Assembly: GCA_050251055.1 (NCBI GenBank)
Contig: JBFWNL010000009.1
Location: 64,001-128,000 of the forward strand
Length of the DNA: 64,000 bases
Direction of reading: 5' to 3'
From: Bacteriovoracia bacterium
GTDB lineage: Bacteria; Bdellovibrionota; UBA1018; JBFWNL01
In this document: positions 31,669 through 42,227 of the stretch, piece after piece
Numbering within the stretch: position 1 is the stretch's first letter
Layout of the letters: each line of letters begins with the position of its first letter
The notes under the pieces: model-generated
What the model was told of the DNA's origin: nothing
What the model saw: only the letters and a program-made list of their open reading frames with translations
Database searches by the model: none
Program-made: the position numbers and the translations under genes

Positions 31669-31797
31669 TCAATCCTGCCTTGTTTGAGTTTCTTAAATTT
31701 TAACGAGTATTTGACTATTTTTATATGTTAATAAATCATGACCTTTCAAAAAAAAATCATTTAATTTCAATTAGTTAAAAACAGAGAATGTTAATAG

Positions 31798-34700
31798 TTA
31801 AATATTATGAACGATTTTATAGTGAGTATTGCGACCTCGGCCAATCGGCGCGATCAGCCTCATTGAAACTAATGAACGCAACTCACGCTTGCATAGCGTC
31901 GGGCTGACTTTGAGTGCCTGTTCGATGGTGGCCCGGTGAATCCGTCCGTTGTTTTCCAAATACTTGATGATCCAATCCTGCCGCTCCGTCAGCACGCTGG
32001 GACCGTCGGCAAAATTCGTAGCGATGCCATACCTCACGTCGGCATTGACCGAGTATTTATGCCCATGACTTTCCACAACGGAGTAACCGGAGATCGACTT
32101 CATCAGCGAACGAACGCGTTTTACTGATGTGTAAATACGGGCATCGTGTACGAGTGGGTTGTACTTTTCGTGCCAAACATGAAGAGCAAGCTCTTCCTTT
32201 GAAAAAGCCTCCTGCGGATGCCGCAATAAAAACTGAAGCAAATTATAAATAATCGGCTTTGCTCCCAGCGGGACCGTTTTATCTCCCGAAGACGCGGTTC
32301 TATCTTCTTCTCTAAGCAATAACTCGTATTCTCGACTCTTAACCTTTTGATCCAGTTCACTACGGTTATAAATAAAGTTCTTGCCTCGAGAGTAGACTTG
32401 AACCTTTTCCGGATTCTTCAATCCCAGCAGGGCATAAAGTGCGTCATAGTATTTCTGATCCTGCTCAGTGGGCTCGATTCCGAATGTGACAAATTCCGGA
32501 AAATAAACCCTCGACACTTTTCGGACGAGGTAACTCAGCTTGCTTCCGTCAGGAATTTTCGCGAGCCAGGCTTTTGCCTGGGTATTTGATTGCCGGCGCA
32601 AAGCCACGGCCGCCAAACCGATCCAGTAAAGGTTTAGATCCTCCACAAAGAAGACCCTTTCCATGAGAGCGCGATTCGACAGCAGCCGTCGCTCTGCGGC
32701 GTCGACCCTGCCCAAAGCCAAGTCGATTAACGCCAAAAAACAAGTCGATCGAATCTGCCAGACGAAGTAGGATCGCCGCGACGCATTCTCGTTACAATGG
32801 ATCAAGCTAGCTTCCGCTTGTTTTAACTGTCCTCCTAGAATTTCCCATACGCCACGAAAGAACCGATACTGAATAGAAATGTAGCCCGCTTGAGACACCC
32901 CGGGCCACGCCGGCAACTGCTTTAGCAGTTCCCCAATTTTAGGGCGCATCGAGAATCGGTAATACGCCTCCAAAGCCATCAAACCCACGGTCGGCCGTTC
33001 AAAAAGGCTTAACTGGTCTAAAACTTCGGGGGCTACGGCCTTATCGAGGAGCTTAAAATCCCCTAAAAACAAAGCCTCGGCGATATTGATAAGGGCTACC
33101 GAAAAAGCCCGTCTAGAGGGAGAGTTCTGAATTTCGGATACCAAGAGCCTCTTACGGGCTAGCTCCAAAGCCAAACCGTAGTCTGACATGCGAAAGTAAC
33201 AACTAATTACGTTCTGCATGGAAAGGTCTTCAGGGGTTGTAATCATCGGATACTGAATGCCTTCCACCTGGTGAGAGACCTGGTCCTTCGCCTCCGTCAA
33301 AAGCCCTTGATTGAAATAGTCGTTGCTTCGGTAAATACGGCAATAAGCCAAGAATCCTCTATACGAATGCCTTTGGCACTCCGTCTCCGCCGCCTGCACC
33401 TCCTTGCGAAATTCATCTAGATTTCCGACGAAAAACAATGCGTTCACGAGGTTCAGCCTGGCCTTCACCACGTCATAGTGCTTCCCTGCGAGCGAATAGT
33501 TCGCCAAGGATTCCTGGAAGTCGCTTACACTCTCGAAGGTTCGCCCGGCACGAAACTTTGAATACCCTTCCCCGAAAAGAATATCGGCATTCAGCAAAGC
33601 CCGCTCGGGGTCATTGCCGGGAATCAGCCTCCTGGCCTCATTAAAACAATCCAGCGCTTTTTCTGCGTCAAAAACTGAATAAACCAATCCTCGCTCAGTA
33701 AATACTCGAGCGAGATACATCCCCCCATCCCCAAGGCCGGCGGCTCCTTCCTCAAGGTCAGATAATACTTTGAGCGAAGAATCTGAGTCCCCACGCCGAT
33801 CAAGACTCCTCGCCAAAAATAAGTCCAACTCAAATCTAGAAGCATCCTCCCAGTTTACGATTCTACCTTTCAAATCCGAACACTCTTCCACGATCTCGGC
33901 ATAAGCTCCCGCCGCGTACATCAACCTCAACCGAATCAACGCACTCTCCGGCGCCAAATGCCCCCGCAGCGCCGCGCTTAACTCCAAGCAAACCACCGAT
34001 TCGCCTTGCGCCACCATCGTCGGCGCGATTTTCGAGAAAAGCGCCGCGGCTTCCGGAATTTTTCCGAGCTTGATCATTTGCCAAAGCTTCTCTTTTAATC
34101 CAGCCTCGCCACCGCCCACATCGGACAGGATCTCCTCGCGCAACGTTTTTTCTTGTCCGCCTTCGATCCGGCGCAACGTCCACGCCAAAAAATCCGGCGC
34201 GATCTCCAGGCGCCCCCCTGCTTTACGAACTAAGTCATGTGCATTCAGGGATCGAAATACATCGGAAGTAAGCAGGGCCGCGAGACTCGAGGCGAATTCC
34301 TGCTCAAAACGCACGAGACCGATCCGACGCACGTCTTGCCAGGCTCCGCGATCCCAACGCGCGGTAATCTTCTCGAACGCGCGCTCGCGCACATTTACAA
34401 GCACGTCATTCAACTCACCCACGGTCAGCACCTTCCCTTCGAGGGAAGAGGCCGCAAGCGCCATTTTGATTTGTTGCGGATTGCCCTGCGTCTGGGTGAG
34501 TAACGCCCCCGCGAGCACGCGGGCGTCGGCGCCGAGCGCGCCCTGGCTCGCGTTCACGAGCTGCTCGATCTGCGCTACGTTCAATCCCAAGTGCCGGTAA
34601 GTGAAAAGGTCGAATAGCACGTTGAGCTCGAGATTGGGCACCGACTTCGCGGTGGCGATTAATCGCGCGGAACGCAGTCGCGAATGCAAGAACTCAACGA

Positions 34701-35052
34701 ACACTTCCCAGTCGCGCACCTGATCGATGTCATCAATAAAGACCACGGCCCGGTTACGCTCAAGGTGCTCAATGACGGCGTCTTGCAACCGCGTGAGCTC
34801 CGTCAGCTTCTGCCACCCCCGCAGAGACACCGCCTCTGCCAAGCGGCGAAACATGGCGGCGGGTTCGGGCTGATCGGAAACCGAGAGCTGAACACGCGGA
34901 CCGGCTCCGAGCGACGCCGAACCCGGAGCCTCCAAAATCTGCCTCAGTAAGACGGACTTACCCGAGCCACTAGGCCCATAAAGAAGGGCGATTCGACGGC
35001 TTTCCCAGCCTCGATTTATGGTTTCGATGACTTCGGTGAGTACTATCTGCAT
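31798..35052 (-). CDS. STAND-type ATPase / TPR / winged-helix transcriptional regulator
   Basis: Walker A GPSGSGKS, Walker B VVFIDD, GNP motif, helical repeats, wHTH (FSKEEL..VW..Y.P..HD.RI), second C-terminal HTH (G.GRNTHY). Confidence 0.75.
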   Translation of the reverse strand: MQIVLTEVIETINRGWESRRIALLYGPSGSGKSVLLRQILEAPGSASLGAGPRVQLSVSDQPEPAAMFRRLAEAVSLRGWQKLTELTRLQDAVIEHLERNRAVVFIDDIDQVRDWEVFVEFLHSRLRSARLIATAKSVPNLELNVLFDLFTYRHLGLNVAQIEQLVNASQGALGADARVLAGALLTQTQGNPQQIKMALAASSLEGKVLTVGELNDVLVNVRERAFEKITARWDRGAWQDVRRIGLVRFEQEFASSLAALLTSDVFRSLNAHDLVRKAGGRLEIAPDFLAWTLRRIEGGQEKTLREEILSDVGGGEAGLKEKLWQMIKLGKIPEAAALFSKIAPTMVAQGESVVCLELSAALRGHLAPESALIRLRLMYAAGAYAEIVEECSDLKGRIVNWEDASRFELDLFLARSLDRRGDSDSSLKVLSDLEEGAAGLGDGGMYLARVFTERGLVYSVFDAEKALDCFNEARRLIPGNDPERALLNADILFGEGYSKFRAGRTFESVSDFQESLANYSLAGKHYDVVKARLNLVNALFFVGNLDEFRKEVQAAETECQRHSYRGFLAYCRIYRSNDYFNQGLLTEAKDQVSHQVEGIQYPMITTPEDLSMQNVISCYFRMSDYGLALELARKRLLVSEIQNSPSRRAFSVALINIAEALFLGDFKLLDKAVAPEVLDQLSLFERPTVGLMALEAYYRFSMRPKIGELLKQLPAWPGVSQAGYISIQYRFFRGVWEILGGQLKQAEASLIHCNENASRRSYFVWQIRSTCFLALIDLALGRVDAAERRLLSNRALMERVFFVEDLNLYWIGLAAVALRRQSNTQAKAWLAKIPDGSKLSYLVRKVSRVYFPEFVTFGIEPTEQDQKYYDALYALLGLKNPEKVQVYSRGKNFIYNRSELDQKVKSREYELLLREEDRTASSGDKTVPLGAKPIIYNLLQFLLRHPQEAFSKEELALHVWHEKYNPLVHDARIYTSVKRVRSLMKSISGYSVVESHGHKYSVNADVRYGIATNFADGPSVLTERQDWIIKYLENNGRIHRATIEQALKVSPTLCKRELRSLVSMRLIAPIGRGRNTHYKIVHNI

Positions 35053-35197
35053 TTTAAATGGTTCTAATCGGACACATTTATAAAAACTCTATTTTATATC
35101 TATTTGTAATTACTAAATAAATAATAGCACAGCACAGCATTAAAAATCAAAAAATATAAAATAATTAATAATATTATATATTTATAAATTATATCAT

Positions 35198-35226
35198 TGT
35201 CATTTCAAGTCAGTTCAAAAATGACA
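35198..35226. promoter_or_regulatory. Candidate operator in an AT-rich divergent promoter region
   Basis: TGTCATTT-N13-AAATGACA inverted repeat within the very AT-rich 35053-35270 spacer. Confidence 0.4.
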
Positions 35227-35280
35227 CACCCCAGCGTATTTACTCCTTGCAGCGAATGACGCTGTTTTTTGGAGGTTCAA

Positions 35281-35952
35281 ATGCAAGTGGTCGATATCAA
35301 GCAATCCGAAGCCCTCACCCTGCCCCGCCGGGCCGAAAAGACCGGAGTACGATTCGAGCAGGTGCAAGATCCCGAACGCCGTGACCAGTGCTATCGCCTA
35401 CGTTACGACGTTTTCGTGGAAGAGCAGGGACTCACCACCAGCGCCAACTCAACCTTTCGGATCCTGGCCGACGAGCTAGATGAAAGCGCGGTCTTACTGG
35501 GCGCTTTCGATGGCGACGAAGCGGTGGCCACGAGCCGTATCAACTATACTGACCACGAACGCTCGCCTTACCGTGCCCTGTACGACTTGGACGAGCAGGA
35601 GGCCGCGCTCCCGGGACGCGTTTCGGTGATCTCGAAGTTAGTGATTGCCACTAGCCACCGCCATAGCTCCGTGTTCCTCCGCTTCTGCCGCTACATGTAT
35701 CGGCAACAGCTGGAACGAAATATCGCCCACTGCTTCGTGGGCTGCGCTCCCGCGCTCGCAGGCCTCTACGCAAAGCTGGGCTTCCGTCCTTACAAAGCCG
35801 CCATCGACGTCGAAGGCTTCGGACCCATCCAGCCCATGCTCCTCGACGTTTTCAACGAGGCGTACCTGAATGAAATTCGCTCTCCCCTGCTCCCCATCTT
35901 GAAAGTTCTCAAAAACACCGGTTCGGTAACGAAAGGAAATGAAAATGAGTAA
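35281..35952 (+). CDS. GNAT-fold N-acyl amino acid synthase-like protein (FeeM/NasP/LuxI-related)
   Basis: GGAGG RBS; YRLRYDVFVEE, DELD, ATSRI, ISKLVI, LYAKLGF. Confidence 0.72.
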   Translation: MQVVDIKQSEALTLPRRAEKTGVRFEQVQDPERRDQCYRLRYDVFVEEQGLTTSANSTFRILADELDESAVLLGAFDGDEAVATSRINYTDHERSPYRALYDLDEQEAALPGRVSVISKLVIATSHRHSSVFLRFCRYMYRQQLERNIAHCFVGCAPALAGLYAKLGFRPYKAAIDVEGFGPIQPMLLDVFNEAYLNEIRSPLLPILKVLKNTGSVTKGNENE

Positions 35953-39268: not shown

Positions 39269-39907
39269 CTGAACTATCTGCGTTTCCTTTCCATCGCATT
39301 TTTAGTGGTCCAAGGCGCGTGCGCGCGGGGATCGCAAAGCATCGAAGCTTCGGGGGGAGGTTCTTCCTCGGGCAACCCGATTACCCCGGTGCAGATTCGT
39401 TTGAATCGCCTGCCCACGGTCAACGTTTCTACCGTCGTCGGCATTTCTGAAATCTACTTCATTAAACCCAATGGCGACGCCGTGCTCGCTTATCAAGCGA
39501 CCGAGTTCTCGGGGCTGTTGGCCTGGAACGAGGAATTCAATCCGCTGCCGCTCGCGGCGGCGCCCGCCGGCAGTTATATCGGCCTCCACATCGTGAACCA
39601 CGCAACCACGATCGTGAACCAGCACGGCGAAAACTTCACCACGGAAGATCCTTACACAATCCGGTTTGACGGGGTGTTTGAAGTACCGAACGCCCAAGAG
39701 GCCCGCATGGGACCGCTCGAGATATCCAACTCGTCGTTTTTCACGCGCGCCAGCCGCATGCGTGACGTGAACGCCTTTGGCTACGTGTATTCCGCGATCG
39801 GAAAAATTCAAGCCCACCCCCTGGAAGGGAAAGACGGCGTGACCGAAGCGGTGAACGTGGTGGAGATCGTTCCGCTTCAGCCCCTGACCCCACCCGGCGG
39901 CCCCTAA
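39269..39907 (+). CDS. Putative lipoprotein with a GSSSGNP motif
   Basis: Frame is open upstream of GTG 39305; a CTG start at 39269 gives the signal peptide NYLRFLSIAFLVVQGA-C. Confidence 0.55.
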   Translation: MNYLRFLSIAFLVVQGACARGSQSIEASGGGSSSGNPITPVQIRLNRLPTVNVSTVVGISEIYFIKPNGDAVLAYQATEFSGLLAWNEEFNPLPLAAAPAGSYIGLHIVNHATTIVNQHGENFTTEDPYTIRFDGVFEVPNAQEARMGPLEISNSSFFTRASRMRDVNAFGYVYSAIGKIQAHPLEGKDGVTEAVNVVEIVPLQPLTPPGGP

Positions 39908-39914
39908 GCCAAAA

Positions 39915-40745
39915 TCAAGCTTCTTCGGCATGGGCGGTGGGAAACGCCGCCATGGTTACGTGGTAGACCGCGTTGCGGGAAGGATTCGCTTGGCTCAGCT
40001 CGCGAATCTTCTGCATGGTTTCCTCGAATAAAACCGTCACTTTTTGGTAGGTATCGGCGTCCATACCGATAGTGAAGCCGGAAACGTGGCGTTTCTCGCG
40101 CTCCACCCGGTGGAGCGAATCAGCACCCAACGCTAGCATCGCGATGTGAAACTCTGTGAGCGCTACCCGGTAGACATTACCCTCGCACTGGATGTGCTTA
40201 TCCCCCGTCGAAACCCGGCCCTGCTTATCCACCACTTCAATGAAGCCATGCTCTTTTAGAAACCGAATCGCCTTTTTGATCTCGGCTAGCGGCACCGTGC
40301 GGACGAGCCGCCGGCTAATCCACTCGGCATCGAGCTTAAAGTGCTCAAGCTCCGCCATTTCGCGAATCGTGACGTAAAACCACCGGCTGAAGTAGCGAGA
40401 AACCTCAAATTCCTTAGGATTCATGCGCCGGTACGTACGGAAGTTCTGGATGGCATGAAAGCCTTCGGATCTTTCCTGCAAGTCCTTCGATTGCCCCATG
40501 GCGCGCAACGAGCGGAAGAAACTCGCTTCGGATGGAGAAAGATCCAAATGCGGAAGGACTTTTTCCAAAGCCTTTTCCGTGAGCGGACGCTTACGCAATA
40601 AGACCTGGGGAAAGAAGGCGCTCGAAAAGCCCGCCCGACGGGCGAACGCCCGGACGGTGAATCGCCCTTTAGCGGCTTTCTTGTAGGCGAACCAGTCCTT
40701 CAAAAAGGCAATGGGATCGTGGTAGCTGCGTATATCGGGTTTCAC
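39915..40745 (-). CDS. TIGR02147 / DUF4423 family HTH protein
   Basis: YHDPIAFLKDWF, FTVRAFARRAG, WFYVTIRE, WISRRL, FH..ML, R..SGFT, VYHV...FP. Confidence 0.85.
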   Translation of the reverse strand: MKPDIRSYHDPIAFLKDWFAYKKAAKGRFTVRAFARRAGFSSAFFPQVLLRKRPLTEKALEKVLPHLDLSPSEASFFRSLRAMGQSKDLQERSEGFHAIQNFRTYRRMNPKEFEVSRYFSRWFYVTIREMAELEHFKLDAEWISRRLVRTVPLAEIKKAIRFLKEHGFIEVVDKQGRVSTGDKHIQCEGNVYRVALTEFHIAMLALGADSLHRVEREKRHVSGFTIGMDADTYQKVTVLFEETMQKIRELSQANPSRNAVYHVTMAAFPTAHAEEA

Positions 40746-40752
40746 ATCTAAA

Positions 40753-40781
40753 ATGCTAACAAAATATCAGTCAAAATTCAA
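40753..40781 (-). promoter_or_regulatory. Sigma70 promoter of the TIGR02147 gene (leaderless geometry)
   Basis: TTGAAT-17 nt-TAGCAT-7 nt-GTG on the minus strand. Confidence 0.55.
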
Positions 40782-40862
40782 TATACGGTCAGCAGTACTA
40801 TGTTACCTAATTGTAATAATTAATTATTTATAAAATATAATCAAAATCTGCTAACAAAATAT
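40754..40862. repeat. 14-bp direct repeat, candidate operator
   Basis: TGCTAACAAAATAT at 40754-40767 and 40849-40862. Confidence 0.65.
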
Positions 40863-40872
40863 ATAACATTAT

Positions 40873-40901
40873 TTGACTTACACCGTCGGAAATCGTATGC
40901 T
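40873..40901 (+). promoter_or_regulatory. Sigma70 promoter
   Basis: TTGACT-17 nt-TATGCT with an AT-rich upstream region. Confidence 0.65.
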
Positions 40902-40907
40902 GTTTAC

Positions 40908-41138
40908 AAGGGGGCAGCAAAACGGGTTGGGGCAAAGCGGTTCGCTTGTGGCGACGCCATTCGGGGTAAAATGCCAAAACCCACTACTCCCTAAAATCTT
41001 GGTTCGGGGCGCTCACGTTGTCATTCGTAGTGAACGCGTTTTTTCGACACCCGTGTCTGGCCCATTATCCCTGCGGCCGCGTCGAAAAGGCGAGTCTGAA
41101 TTCCATTTCGGGGCGAATTCGGGCGACAACGTGAGCGT
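40908..41138 (+). ncRNA. Candidate structured non-coding RNA
   Basis: Follows the promoter; no credible ORF; 13-bp closing stem 41010-41022/41125-41137 encloses two further stems with G-U pairs. Confidence 0.5.
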
Positions 41139-41148
41139 GTGGCACTCC

Positions 41149-41820
41149 TCACGCGCGTTCCGCGACGACCAGAGTCTTACGCAAAAACTTACCCAAAGCA
41201 CTGCCTTCCGGTAAATGCTGGTGAATCAAAGCCCATGCCTCGTCATCCGAAAACGCTCCCGAAGCTTCCCACAAATCCTCGTATAGATGCCGAGTCGCGC
41301 CGACCGCGAGCGAAGGAAACGCGCCGTCATCCACCTCCCCAAAAGCCACGATCGAAAGACGGGTGAAGAGCTCCTTAACGCCCTTGCTATAGGCGCTTTC
41401 GTTAAACTTCCCTTGCAGATCGGTCATGCGCTTGAGCTCCTTGGTGGAAAGCGGCGAATCACTCTCCAAGGCTTCCAATATCCGGCGAGCGGTTAGGGAG
41501 TAACGGCTCCCCCCGGGTGGAATCCCGGCGTCCTGGCGCCGATACACGGCCAATAGCGCGGTGAAAAGCGGGCGAGAAAAGAACGTAGCGCGGCCCTGAT
41601 ACCACTTCACGTAGACAACCTGCCGACAGTCGCTTAAGCGCTTCATGAGATGCCACATGTCCGCAACGCGGTTATCGCCGCTCTCATCCCATTCCCAGCG
41701 CATGGGCGTGCGTGGAGAGAATTCATACCAAAGCGAGCGCGGCTCACGCTTATTGTTCACGGGAAACACGAGCAACACTCCGGCTCGATTGATCTTGCTG
41801 ATGGCGCTGCGCTGGTTCAT
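41149..41820 (-). CDS. AlkZ-related winged-helix domain protein
   Basis: SLW, YxKWYxGRATF, RRILEALESDSPLSTKELK motifs. Confidence 0.55.
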   Translation of the reverse strand: MNQRSAISKINRAGVLLVFPVNNKREPRSLWYEFSPRTPMRWEWDESGDNRVADMWHLMKRLSDCRQVVYVKWYQGRATFFSRPLFTALLAVYRRQDAGIPPGGSRYSLTARRILEALESDSPLSTKELKRMTDLQGKFNESAYSKGVKELFTRLSIVAFGEVDDGAFPSLAVGATRHLYEDLWEASGAFSDDEAWALIHQHLPEGSALGKFLRKTLVVAERA

Positions 41821-41999: not shown

Positions 42000-42158
42000 G
42001 AACCATTTTTCTTCTCAATTTTATCTTAAAAAAAGACGCCGACCCGGGAGGGGGCATCCGCGGGCCACGAGGGCGCTGAGCGGTTGAGCGCATGGAAGCG
42101 CGTCCCCCTCACGGGTCGGCGTCTTTTTTTAAGATAAAATTGAGAAGAAAAATGGTTC
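42000..42158. repeat. Long inverted repeat (55-bp arms) abutting the tRNA 3' end
   Basis: 42000-42054 vs 42104-42158: 47 bp perfect + 1 mismatch + 7 bp; 49-nt spacer. Confidence 0.95.
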
Positions 42159-42227
42159 GGGCGATTGGGGTTGAACCAACGACCCCCACCGTGTCAAGGT
42201 GGTGCTCTGCCACTGAGCTACGCCCGA
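42153..42227 (-). tRNA. tRNA-Val(GAC)
   Basis: Cloverleaf: acceptor TCGGGCG/CGCCCGA, D arm GCTC/GAGC, anticodon arm CCACC-TTGACAC-GGTGG, T loop TTCAACC, encoded CCA. Confidence 0.97.

Follow-up and report, generated by a model that had tools for sequence, protein, structure and literature searches.

A possible orphaned leader RNA transcribed divergently from a TIGR02147 regulator gene in a Bacteriovoracia bacterium

The TIGR02147 locus and its paralogs

The window analysed here, a stretch of 64,000 nt from the genome of a Bacteriovoracia bacterium, contains a 403-nt spacer that separates a gene for a TIGR02147 protein from an AlkZ-related gene (Table 1) and comprises a control region and a divergent output. 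The element under study lies upstream of, and divergent from, the TIGR02147 gene, and directly 3' of the convergent AlkZ-related gene. The latter is single-copy in the genome, and 11 nt separate its stop codon from the end of the element's outer stem.

Table 1. Positions of genes and sequence features in and around the element (window coordinates).
Feature	Position	Strand	Remarks
TIGR02147/DUF4423 gene	39915..40745	-	276 aa, GTG start
Ultra-AT-rich control tract	40746..40872		low GC
Direct repeat copy 1, candidate operator	40754..40767	+	14 nt; TIGR02147 start codon 9 nt away
Direct repeat copy 2, candidate operator	40849..40862	+	14 nt; ends 10 nt upstream of -35 hexamer
Sigma70-type promoter TTGACT-17-TATGCT	40873..40901	+	divergent from TIGR02147
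5' domain of putative transcript	40908..40997	+	MFE -30.3 kcal/mol, z -1.32, not significant
TTCGGGG motif copy 1	40960..40966	+	
7-codon ATG mini-ORF MPKPTTP	40971..40994	+	putative; GGGG 4 nt upstream
TTCGGGG motif copy 2	41003..41009	+	
Three-way junction	41009..41138	+	13-bp outer stem and one G.U; encloses 12-bp and 10-bp hairpins
TTCGGGG motif copy 3	41107..41113	+	loop of third hairpin
AlkZ-related (PF24741) gene	41149..41820	-	convergent; Pfam 2.9e-17

The product of the 39915-40745 gene matched NCBIfam TIGR02147 at 159.8 bits (cut-off, 50) over model positions 2-270 of 272, and its Pfam match was DUF4423 (3.2e-28). This result confirms the assignment of the neighbour as a TIGR02147 regulator, which had been made in an earlier reading of the DNA alone (the sequence-only reading). 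In an AF2 model of the protein (pLDDT 94), residues 7-93 resembled XRE-type HTH domains (3pxp, Z 7.7; HigA, Z 7.0) and residues 107-186 resembled winged-helix domains (ArsR/HxlR/PadR, Z 7.2-7.3); all of the structural matches were at Z < 8, a range for which the tool cautions that a common arrangement may explain the match. Foldseek gave local probabilities of 0.94-0.99 for HigA and ClgR, and no match at E<=1e-3. The fold predicted from this model would combine two DNA-binding-like modules, an XRE-type HTH and a winged helix.

The tract that adjoins the TIGR02147 gene is strikingly poor in GC: 20.7% in 40746-40880, versus 57.8% for the genome. We counted 64 ultra-AT-rich tracts in the genome, 16 of which are directly upstream of TIGR02147 genes. 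Within the tract at the element, a 14-nt sequence occurs twice as an exact direct repeat with a spacing of 95 bp, or about nine helical turns; the number of exact 14-nt repeat matches expected from 100 shuffles of the window was 0. The 14-mer is present in three exact copies in the genome, two at the element's tract and one in an AT tract on contig C10 (C10:82189-82345), where the exact copy has a partner with 2 mismatches at a distance of 96 bp. When up to 2 mismatches were allowed, 13 matches were found, including four within these two tracts. We found that the two tracts are collinear, promoter and Shine-Dalgarno sequence (SD) included. On C10, a 95-aa ORF whose N-terminus is hydrophobic begins with an ATG 7 nt after the SD, and the repeat pair precedes small secreted-protein genes; it is with this real SD that the SD-like block of the putative transcript aligns. 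These arrangements suggest that the 14-nt repeats are private operators of the adjacent TIGR02147 protein, which would bind to them, and the C10 operon with the same repeat pair is more likely than the element to be the regulator's productive target.

The good sigma70-type promoter proposed by the sequence-only reading is present and matches 9 of 12 consensus positions. Taken alone, the TTGACT-17-TATGCT pattern occurs at chance level (1 site, versus 0.7 +/- 1.0 in shuffles); 12 further paralog loci have such a promoter in the same position. The genome encodes 33 full-length TIGR02147 paralogs, and a promoter scan that covered 23 TIGR02147 loci identified TTGAYN-N17-TAnnnT at 13 of them, in each case at the far end of an ultra-AT-rich tract. 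These edge promoters point away from the TIGR02147 gene, and the closest paralog's locus has an identical promoter motif, ATTATTTGACT. Genome-wide, we found 16 promoter matches at an AT-to-GC boundary, 12 of them at TIGR02147 loci; in ORF-free DNA, the background of the promoter pattern is 0.135 per kb per strand. From the sequence we infer that the element's promoter would be active.

At the 12 other promoter loci, cargo ORFs with GGGGG-type SDs are found 16-420 nt downstream, and their N-termini, as judged by eye, are hydrophobic or prepilin-like. The promoter at these 12 sister loci of a predatory-type bacterium thus appears to drive the gene for a secreted or pilin-like protein. The element's locus is the only one of the 13 promoter loci without a cargo gene. 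The closest relatives of its TIGR02147 protein are in-genome paralogs (C4:329003, 56%; C1:552266, 53%), and the best match in 115 other genomes was 42%. The element's locus and those of the C4 and C1 paralogs share their tract length (139-141 nt), and each has its own direct repeat, with a spacing of 94-96 bp. In other genomes, this AT-tract architecture was absent upstream of the best TIGR02147 matches at the 9 loci with usable flanks, and the pattern may therefore be lineage-specific.

Long hairpins occur in the sister leaders, including one at C6:197524 that is followed by a T-run, and a folding z of -2.3 or lower was obtained for 4 of the 10 other leaders long enough for testing. Perfect inverted repeats of at least 12 bp lie downstream of 6 of the 13 promoters, where about 1.4 would be expected by our own arithmetic from the rate in ORF-free DNA (102 per 278,721 nt). 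The C4 leader contains a strong GC hairpin about 125 nt before the cargo gene and could therefore itself be a separate RNA. The putative RNA at the element did not align with the 12 other leaders (z -0.9 to 1.6), and beyond about +20 it had no alignment to the C4 or C10 sequences.

Folding and coding potential of the putative RNA

The sequence-only reading had described three nested stems of 13, 12 and 10 bp, and all three are present exactly where it placed them. The outer stem (41010-41022/41125-41137) consists of 13 Watson-Crick pairs, the second stem (41037-41048/41081-41092) of 12 pairs and the third (41094-41103/41115-41124) of 10, with two U.G pairs in each of the latter two. Its remark that the non-Watson-Crick pairs are G-U on the + strand is likewise true of all five, the four in the stems and that at 41009/41138. 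This asymmetry (p ~0.03, one-sided, by our own arithmetic) favours a + strand RNA.

The nested-helix fold has an MFE of -60.1 kcal/mol on the + strand and -50.4 kcal/mol on the - strand. For the 3' domain, z was -3.23 and -2.82, respectively, and 2 of 200 shuffles were as stable on each strand. The claim of a structured RNA thus holds for the 3' domain, but not for the longer stretches: the whole 251-nt stretch gave z -1.66 (16/200 shuffles fold equally well), the 235-nt putative RNA gave z -1.68 (12/200), and 20 of 200 shuffles fold as well as the 5' domain alone. Compared with ORF-free DNA of this genome (contigs C1 to part of C6), the + strand fold ranks among the most extreme 2.25% of 9,684 strand-windows; a 138-nt window at least as extreme is nevertheless present in 78 of the 421 ORF-free regions scanned. 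The folding signal is modest.

Within the 5' domain, an SD-like AAGGGGG (40909-40915) pairs with CUCCCU (40990-40995). The putative RNA also contains three copies of TTCGGGG, a motif found genome-wide at 0.117 per kb per strand. Same-strand clusters of at least 3 copies within 250 nt number only three in the genome, and two of these lie, in sense orientation, in the putative RNA and in the leader at C4, the locus of the closest paralog. A search of 40400-41500 for terminator-like sites was negative on both strands. The arms of the outer stem are 102 nt apart, and the stem is followed by GTGTGGCA on the + strand and CCCCGAAC on the - strand; no U-tract lies on either side of the palindrome, which is therefore not a canonical intrinsic terminator.

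The description of the element as ORF-less proved correct for ATG starts: the only + strand ATG in 40908-41148 is at 40971, and MPKPTTP is the sole ORF of this kind. It did not extend to TTG starts, as a TTG-initiated frame of 113 codons (40873-41214) is open through the entire element; TTG 40927 (95 codons) and TTG 41018 (38 codons) both fall within the putative transcript. A 105-aa version of the long frame is recorded as a predicted protein, and its ATG is inside the -10 hexamer. The GC3 of the frame is 0.57-0.59, versus 0.64-0.75 in five neighbouring genes. Among 5.8 billion proteins, the frame matched only itself, and a phmmer search of 1.84 billion proteins returned itself and one repeat-inflated match. 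We rejected the latter, a 1075-aa filamin-repeat protein (E 6.6e-4), as a relative: it adds up six alignments between a single segment of the query and a repeated unit. Pfam returned no family for the frame, Filamin included, even at E<=10, and a 37-aa sORF at C4 did not align with the 38-codon TTG frame. A decayed gene was also considered and rejected, as tblastx against the genome itself and the AlkZ-related loci gave nothing at or below E 0.05. The putative ~230-nt RNA is most likely non-coding.

Searches for relatives

The sequence-only reading had recognised no known RNA family, and Rfam 15 bore this out. At the gathering score, the search of the whole window returned tRNA-Val only; at E<=10, 40600-41300 gave two chance-level rows, one of 23.9 bits (cut-off, 55) and one of 15.5 bits (cut-off, 60). 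A genomic island or att site was considered and rejected, since the tRNA-Val 3' end lacks a direct repeat, the adjacent palindrome arm excepted. A covariance model of the 3' domain, built from this single sequence, found only itself in the genome and, under stricter filters, nothing at E<=0.1 in 115 other genomes. A DNA search of 60 same-order genomes yielded only matches of 24-26 nt (E 1e-3 and 7e-3).

By blastn, nhmmer and covariance model, the element is single-copy in its own genome, and a REP- or MITE-like repeat was rejected for that reason. The 13-nt arms have scattered matches elsewhere in the genome at 1 mismatch only, and a profile of the genome's tRNA-trailer palindrome family did not match the element. 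At 11 AlkZ-related loci from other Bdellovibrionota-type MAGs, 4 of which have <500 nt downstream, we found no TIGR02147 match and no similar DNA. A scan of metagenome contigs with the TIGR02147 protein returned no relative, and the operator-pair pattern retrieved from metagenome contigs 7 loci of 30-40% GC, with no TIGR02147 homologue at E <0.2 and no similar DNA. The sequencing runs found to contain the locus were three, all of DNA and from one landfill-metagenome study, and two of them may be where the sequence came from. Logan contigs of these runs were identical to the window wherever the element was covered; one run of the three covers only 41140-41353. No homologue of the element was found in the genome itself, in the 115 same-order genomes, at the 11 AlkZ-related loci or in metagenomes. 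On these comparisons, the RNA appears to be a lineage-specific orphan of uncertain function.

Interpretation and comparison with known systems

Our preferred reading, to which we assign about an even chance, is that the element produces an orphaned, leader-like transcript under the regulator's control, with its end at a palindrome that the convergent AlkZ-related gene shares. The AT tract and its two 14-nt operators would confer control by the adjacent TIGR02147 protein. At the far edge of the tract lies the sigma70-type promoter, whose equivalents appear to drive cargo genes, often through a hairpin-rich leader. Here the cargo gene would be missing, and transcription from near 40908 would give a leader-like RNA of ~230 nt, which would retain the SD-like AAGGGGG that on C10 stands before a real start codon, as well as three UUCGGGG motifs. 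This RNA would run head-on into the 3' end of the AlkZ-related gene, such that the convergent transcripts would meet at the palindrome, probably a stop or 3'-end-protecting structure for both. In sum, the RNA would be an orphaned leader under regulation, either a by-product of a regulator-cargo cassette or a relic of one. Both the ends of the RNA and the loss of the cargo gene are points that we infer.

Because the promoter at the 12 other loci appears to drive a protein gene through a leader, the simplest reading is that of a leader without its lost gene; and because no relatives were found and the sister promoters appear to drive protein genes, an orphaned leader is likelier than a new conserved RNA gene. 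As the RNA cannot be aligned to C4 or C10 over most of its length, the term 'orphaned leader' is based on its location, the SD-like block and a single short motif. Counter to an orphaned leader, the three perfect or wobble-only helices and the near-consensus promoter are better kept than would be needed in a pure relic, and some function is therefore favoured. Also counter to it is the frame of 95-113 codons that lies open across the element.

The sequence-only reading had instead proposed a novel ncRNA tied to TIGR02147. The link to TIGR02147, the promoter and the motif cluster common to C4 uphold part of this proposal, whereas an independent conserved ncRNA gene is not borne out, no homologues having been found. 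It is unlikely, in our judgement, that the element encodes a functional, lineage-specific ncRNA of ~230 nt, made from a TIGR02147-controlled promoter and acting in trans or, against the AlkZ-related mRNA, as a cis-antisense or insulating RNA. Its strongest points are a near-consensus promoter conserved in position among paralog loci, and three helices that total 35 bp without a mismatch, with every wobble pair on the + strand and a marked z for the 3' domain; the triple UUCGGGG common to the C4 leader, possibly itself a separate RNA, and the lack of a credible protein gene agree with it as well. Set against these are a whole-RNA z of only -1.7, equally strong folds in many ORF-free regions of the genome, the lack of a terminator and of any homologue or paralogue found, the 12 of 12 comparable promoters that appear to drive protein genes, and the plausible protein-coding target of the regulator on C10. 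Similarly doubtful is a fuller version with an RNA-only divergent output: a structured ~230-nt ncRNA with three UUCGGGG motifs, paralogous to the closest paralog's leader or sRNA, co-regulated through the 14-nt operator pair with a distant operon for small secreted Cys-rich proteins, and acting on the AlkZ-related mRNA or in trans. If this were true, TIGR02147 proteins would be dual-HTH regulators that, through private operators, govern regulatory RNAs as well as genes for secreted proteins.

Since the 3' domain also folds well on the - strand (z -2.82) and abuts the AlkZ-related gene, it may be part of that transcription unit only, serving on the - strand as a 3'-UTR stop or stabiliser, with the divergent promoter a silent leftover. 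The closeness of the outer stem to the AlkZ-related stop codon, the -50.4 kcal/mol fold and the lack of any other terminator-like site for this gene before the AT tract are consistent with such a unit, as is the finding that 45 of 52 long-loop perfect inverted repeats in ORF-free DNA have no T-run. We nevertheless consider it improbable: all five wobble positions become A.C mismatches on the - strand, and the third TTCGGGG, on the + strand within the palindrome, ties the palindrome to a TIGR02147-type leader. The flanks of the 11 AlkZ-related orthologues contained nothing similar, which says little at 31-59% protein identity. By far the least credible alternative is a small orphan protein, encoded by the 95-113-codon TTG frame, the 38-codon TTG frame or the 7-codon ATG mini-ORF. 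One frame is indeed open over 342 nt, with a 105-aa product recorded by a gene caller; the SD-like AAGGGGG stands 11 nt before TTG 40927, and GGGG stands 4 nt before ATG 40971 and 8 nt before TTG 41018. The marginal phmmer match would also count in its favour, but that match is repeat-inflated and lacks Pfam support, and apart from it the frame matched only itself in the two protein collections. The frame has a GC3 below that of its neighbours, lacks the signal peptide that cargo proteins appear to have and overlaps the AlkZ-related gene by 66 nt, and the ATG of its 105-aa version falls within a promoter hexamer.

The value of the locus lies less in the RNA itself than in what it shows about TIGR02147/DUF4423, a family with many paralogs. 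The AT tracts, the divergent promoters, the predicted dual DNA-binding fold and the private repeat pair yield predictions that can be tested directly, on the operator, the regulon and how control is exerted, for a family without known function. A full-text literature search on the family led to a single paper, in which a DUF4423 protein is no more than an entry in a proteomics table. Divergently transcribed ncRNAs in Escherichia coli are, as a general class, the subject of PMC7967276.

The palindrome resembles bidirectional terminators and REP-like stabilisers in being a GC-rich, nested structure between converging units that folds on both strands. It differs from bidirectional terminators in having no U-tract on either side, from terminator hairpins in its outer stem, which has 102 nt between its arms instead of a short loop, and from REP or MITE families in being single-copy. 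With structured 5' leaders and attenuators, the element shares a predicted start at a promoter that normally precedes a gene and an SD-like block that pairs with an anti-SD-like stretch, CUCCCU. Unlike structured leaders and riboswitches, it has no downstream gene on the same strand, the next gene being the convergent AlkZ-related one, and it matches no known aptamer or leader family.

In E. coli, the regulator genes of the OxyR/OxyS and GcvA/GcvB pairs each have a divergent non-coding RNA. The element differs from these pairs in that its regulator belongs to a different, uncharacterised family, TIGR02147, in that it lacks a terminator and conservation, and in that its promoter type appears to drive a protein gene at 12 sister loci. 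As in OxyR/OxyS and GcvA/GcvB, the putative divergent product has no convincing ORF, and the gene for a DNA-binding regulator and a divergent promoter share one control region.

Architecture and predicted fold of the spacer

The element lies in a 403-nt spacer, all of which the finding covers. Both flanking genes, encoding a TIGR02147/DUF4423 regulator and an AlkZ-related protein, are on the minus strand, and the spacer is therefore upstream of the former and downstream of the latter. The window is positions 64001-128000 of contig C9. No other genome compared belongs to the family or genus of the source assembly (3.77 Mb, 21 contigs, 57.8% GC); the AlkZ-related protein has relatives in MAGs labelled Bdellovibrio, Bacteriovoracaceae and Oligoflexia. 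Two ORFs on opposite strands overlap almost totally just downstream of the regulator gene, and the plus-strand member has no Pfam or NCBIfam family.

Features of the spacer and its surroundings (window positions)
Feature	Position	Strand	Remark
TIGR02147/DUF4423 gene	39915-40745	-	159.8 bits (cut-off 50)
AlkZ-related gene	41149-41820	-	PF24741, 2.9e-17
AT-rich tract of spacer	40746-40880		GC 20.7%
Middle part of spacer	40881-41005		GC 52.8%
GC-rich part of spacer	41006-41148		GC 58.7%
14-nt direct repeats	40754 and 40849		identical, 95 bp apart, in AT-rich tract
Promoter-like site TTGACT-17-TATGCT	40873-40901	+	9 of 12 positions match
5' domain of putative RNA	40908-40997	+
3' domain, nested palindrome	41009-41138	+
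TTCGGGG, three copies	40960, 41003, 41107	+	in putative RNA
TTG-initiated frame	40873-41214	+	113 codons
Overlapping ORFs	39302-39931	-	209 aa
	39305-39907	+	200 aa
Other ultra-AT tracts	31680-31832
	35044-35234		between ORFs 31798-35052 (-) and 35269-35952 (+), divergent
tRNA-adjoining family copy	42002-42155		C9:106002-106155
tRNA-Val	42153-42227	-

The sequence-only reading had proposed a structured RNA transcribed from a divergent promoter. We found the promoter-like site in place and the three helices of the 3' domain exact: the outer one has 13 Watson-Crick pairs, and the inner ones have 12 and 10 pairs, two of them U.G in each case. The outer stem is lengthened by one more pair, G.U (41009/41138). 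The reported strand bias also holds, with all five wobble pairs G.U on the plus strand where the minus strand would have A.C. The 3' domain folds better than shuffles (z = -3.23 on the plus strand and -2.82 on the minus, with 2 of 200 shuffles as good on each), but the structure is weaker than had been implied over the 251-nt stretch (z = -1.66), the 235-nt putative RNA (z = -1.68) and the 5' domain, whose MFE fold pairs the 5' AGGGGG with CUCCCU (40990-40995) at a z that is not significant (-1.32). Relative to 138-nt windows of the genome's own ORF-free DNA (contigs C1 to part of C6, MFE regressed on GC content), the plus-strand fold of the 3' domain ranks within the top 2.25% of 9,684 strand-windows, but 78 of the 421 ORF-free regions on these contigs contain a window at least as extreme. 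Among strongly folding windows, 39% show a strand difference of at least 9.7 kcal/mol.

Rfam contains no match. The element is single-copy: blastn, nhmmer and a covariance model of the 3' domain detected no further copy in its own genome. Similarly, a DNA search of 60 same-order genomes gave no convincing relative, the covariance model had no match in 115 same-order genomes, 11 AlkZ-related loci of other genomes contained neither similar DNA nor a TIGR02147 gene, and two metagenome scans returned no related sequence. Contigs from three public runs do not differ from the window where they cover it, and the runs listed for the locus include no RNA run. By the criteria applied, the element does not qualify as a member of an Rfam family, as an intrinsic terminator, as a repeated palindromic element, as a leader preceding an ORF or as a protein gene.

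Palindromes also occur elsewhere in this genome. It contains 180 perfect inverted repeats (arms, at least 12 nt; loops, 3-130 nt), versus 27 in block shuffles, and many have loops of at least 30 nt and no T-run (examples are C1:210971, C7:169945, C3:188073 and C6:197524). Beside tRNA-Val lies one copy of a family of about 25, in which a conserved core of ~55-60 nt, containing covarying hairpins, lies between perfect inverted arms of 25-46 nt that are locus-specific and include an A-run and a T-run; 17 of 25 profile matches follow the 3' end of a tRNA gene at a distance of 32-65 nt (45 tRNAs in the genome), always in one orientation. This family has no Rfam match and only one weak match in 115 other same-order genomes.

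A promoter class at TIGR02147 loci

The genome has 36 TIGR02147 matches, 33 of them above the cut-off, and about 20 lower-scoring TIGR02147 genes are immediately preceded by 100-400 nt of DNA so rich in AT that the GC content of 50-nt bins falls to 2-30%. Of 23 loci scanned, 13 have a TTGAYN-N17-TAnnnT motif exactly at the tract's far edge, oriented away from TIGR02147. Only 16 such motifs genome-wide are preceded by at most 20% GC and followed by at least 40%, and 12 of these, including that at 40873-40901, are at TIGR02147 loci. The spacer's promoter is thus one of a class that recurs at a conserved position, which supports the site first noted and its link to TIGR02147.

Downstream of the 12 other promoters, 16-420 nt on, we found a GGGGG-type SD and then an ORF whose N-terminus, as judged by eye, is hydrophobic or like that of a prepilin; among the 13, a cargo gene of this type is absent only at 40873-40901. 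The leader fold reaches z <= -2.3 in 4 of 10 testable cases at the other loci, and a perfect inverted repeat of at least 12 bp lies within ~240 nt after 6 of the 13 promoters, versus ~1.4 expected from an ORF-free rate of 102 per 278,721 nt. One leader repeat, followed by the T-run CCCCCTTTTTTG, looks like an attenuator, and two others enclose the presumed start codon of a prepilin-like gene.

The TTCGGGG motif, found at 0.117 per kb per strand genome-wide, forms only three same-strand clusters of at least three copies within 250 nt: one in the putative RNA, one on the sense strand of the 420-nt divergent-promoter leader of the paralog at C4:329003, and one inside a long ORF. Likewise, 3 of the genome's 31 ATTCGGGGT sites fall in the putative RNA and the C4 leader, two sequences that do not align beyond ~+20. 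The third TTCGGGG is located in a hairpin loop inside the palindrome, and thus ties the 3' domain to a TIGR02147-type leader and not to the AlkZ-related flank.

The C4 leader (L022:2456-2879, C4:329958-330381) precedes the gene transcribed divergently from the closest paralog. Besides its three TTCGGGG motifs, it contains a 37-codon ATG ORF with a GGGGG SD (L022:2573-2686) and, ~125 nt before a 247-aa cargo gene, a strong GC hairpin followed by A7GT5; its fold over 305 nt has z = -2.28. It may be a gene in its own right, for a small RNA or a small protein.

Candidate operators and a sister tract

The regulator's closest relatives are paralogs in the same genome (C4:329003, 56%; C1:552266, 53%; best elsewhere, 42%), with tracts of the same length as the spacer's (139-141 nt). 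Shuffles predict no 14-nt repeat pair such as the spacer's, and its tract alone, among the genome's 64 ultra-AT tracts, has an internal direct repeat of at least 11 nt with at least three G/C. Each of the two paralog tracts has a different direct repeat in the corresponding places, at spacings of 96 and 94 bp. The single further exact copy of the 14-mer in the genome, C10:82310, is within another AT tract (C10:82189-82345, in locus L059, C10:80000-84500) that holds a second copy, with two mismatches, 96 bp away. Spacer and C10 tracts are collinear through the promoter (C10: TTGAGT-17-TAATCT) and an AGGGGG 6-7 nt after the -10 hexamer, and their similarity ends directly after this block. On C10, AGGGGG is a real SD: 7 nt on, a 95-aa, Cys-rich ORF whose N-terminus is hydrophobic starts with ATG, and a similar ORF of 96 aa comes next; no Pfam family matches either. 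The C10 tract has no TIGR02147 gene beside it. We infer that the 14-nt repeats are probable operators of the 39915-40745 protein, for which the C10 operon is a candidate target in trans.

The model of this protein is confident (pLDDT 94; 30 in-genome paralogs used). Its residues 7-93 look like HTH domains of the XRE type (3pxp, Z 7.7; HigA, 7.0; DdrO, 6.7) and residues 107-186 like winged-helix domains (ArsR/HxlR/PadR, Z 7.2-7.3), although Z values below 8 may reflect a common arrangement. Foldseek gave local probabilities of 0.94-0.99 for HigA and ClgR, and no match at E <= 1e-3. Genome-wide, the 64 tracts (at least 80 nt, at most 20% GC) comprise 16 directly upstream of TIGR02147 genes and 48 elsewhere.

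Origin of the putative RNA and related systems

We propose that the TIGR02147 protein would bind the two in-phase repeats and so regulate its own gene as well as the divergent promoter, from which an RNA would begin near 40908. With the cargo gene absent, this RNA would be a leader-like non-coding transcript that meets the convergent AlkZ-related transcript at the nested palindrome, perhaps a shared stop or 3'-end structure of both. We favour, with about as much belief as doubt, an orphaned leader, regulated and probably made, and a by-product or relic sooner than a trans-acting ncRNA. The sequence-only reading is confirmed in part as an observation and supported in part as an interpretation; the RNA itself is an orphan with modest intrinsic support. 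A functional lineage-specific ncRNA or antisense RNA, a reading in whose favour its clean helices, wobble asymmetry and well-kept promoter speak, is one that we consider unlikely.

The palindrome, which has no U-tract, is 11 nt from the AlkZ-related stop codon and folds on both strands, and could serve that gene alone with the promoter silent; given the motif in its loop, we find this improbable too. That the spacer encodes a small orphan protein is very improbable. The sole plus-strand ATG in 40908-41148, at 40971, encodes MPKPTTP, so the description of the element as ORF-less stands for ATG starts, but not for the TTG frame, which is open through the element. GC3 of this frame is 0.57-0.59, versus 0.64-0.75 in five neighbouring genes, tblastx of the element gave no protein-level match, and a search of 5.8 billion proteins with its 113-aa translation recovered that sequence alone. 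From 1.84 billion representatives came the sequence again and one filamin-repeat protein (E 6.6e-4). We rejected this last match, whose score adds up six alignments of a single query segment with a repeating unit and which Pfam did not confirm even at E <= 10.

More useful than the RNA is the architecture exposed for the uncharacterised TIGR02147 family, for whose names, TIGR02147 and DUF4423, the literature text available lists only a DUF4423 protein in a proteomics table. Divergently transcribed ncRNAs are treated as a class in PMC7967276. The element differs from intrinsic terminators and is similar both to stem-loops between convergent genes and to structured leaders, although, unlike the latter, it has no downstream ORF. 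Regulators paired with a divergent sRNA include OxyR/OxyS and GcvA/GcvB, and the geometry of the spacer is like theirs.
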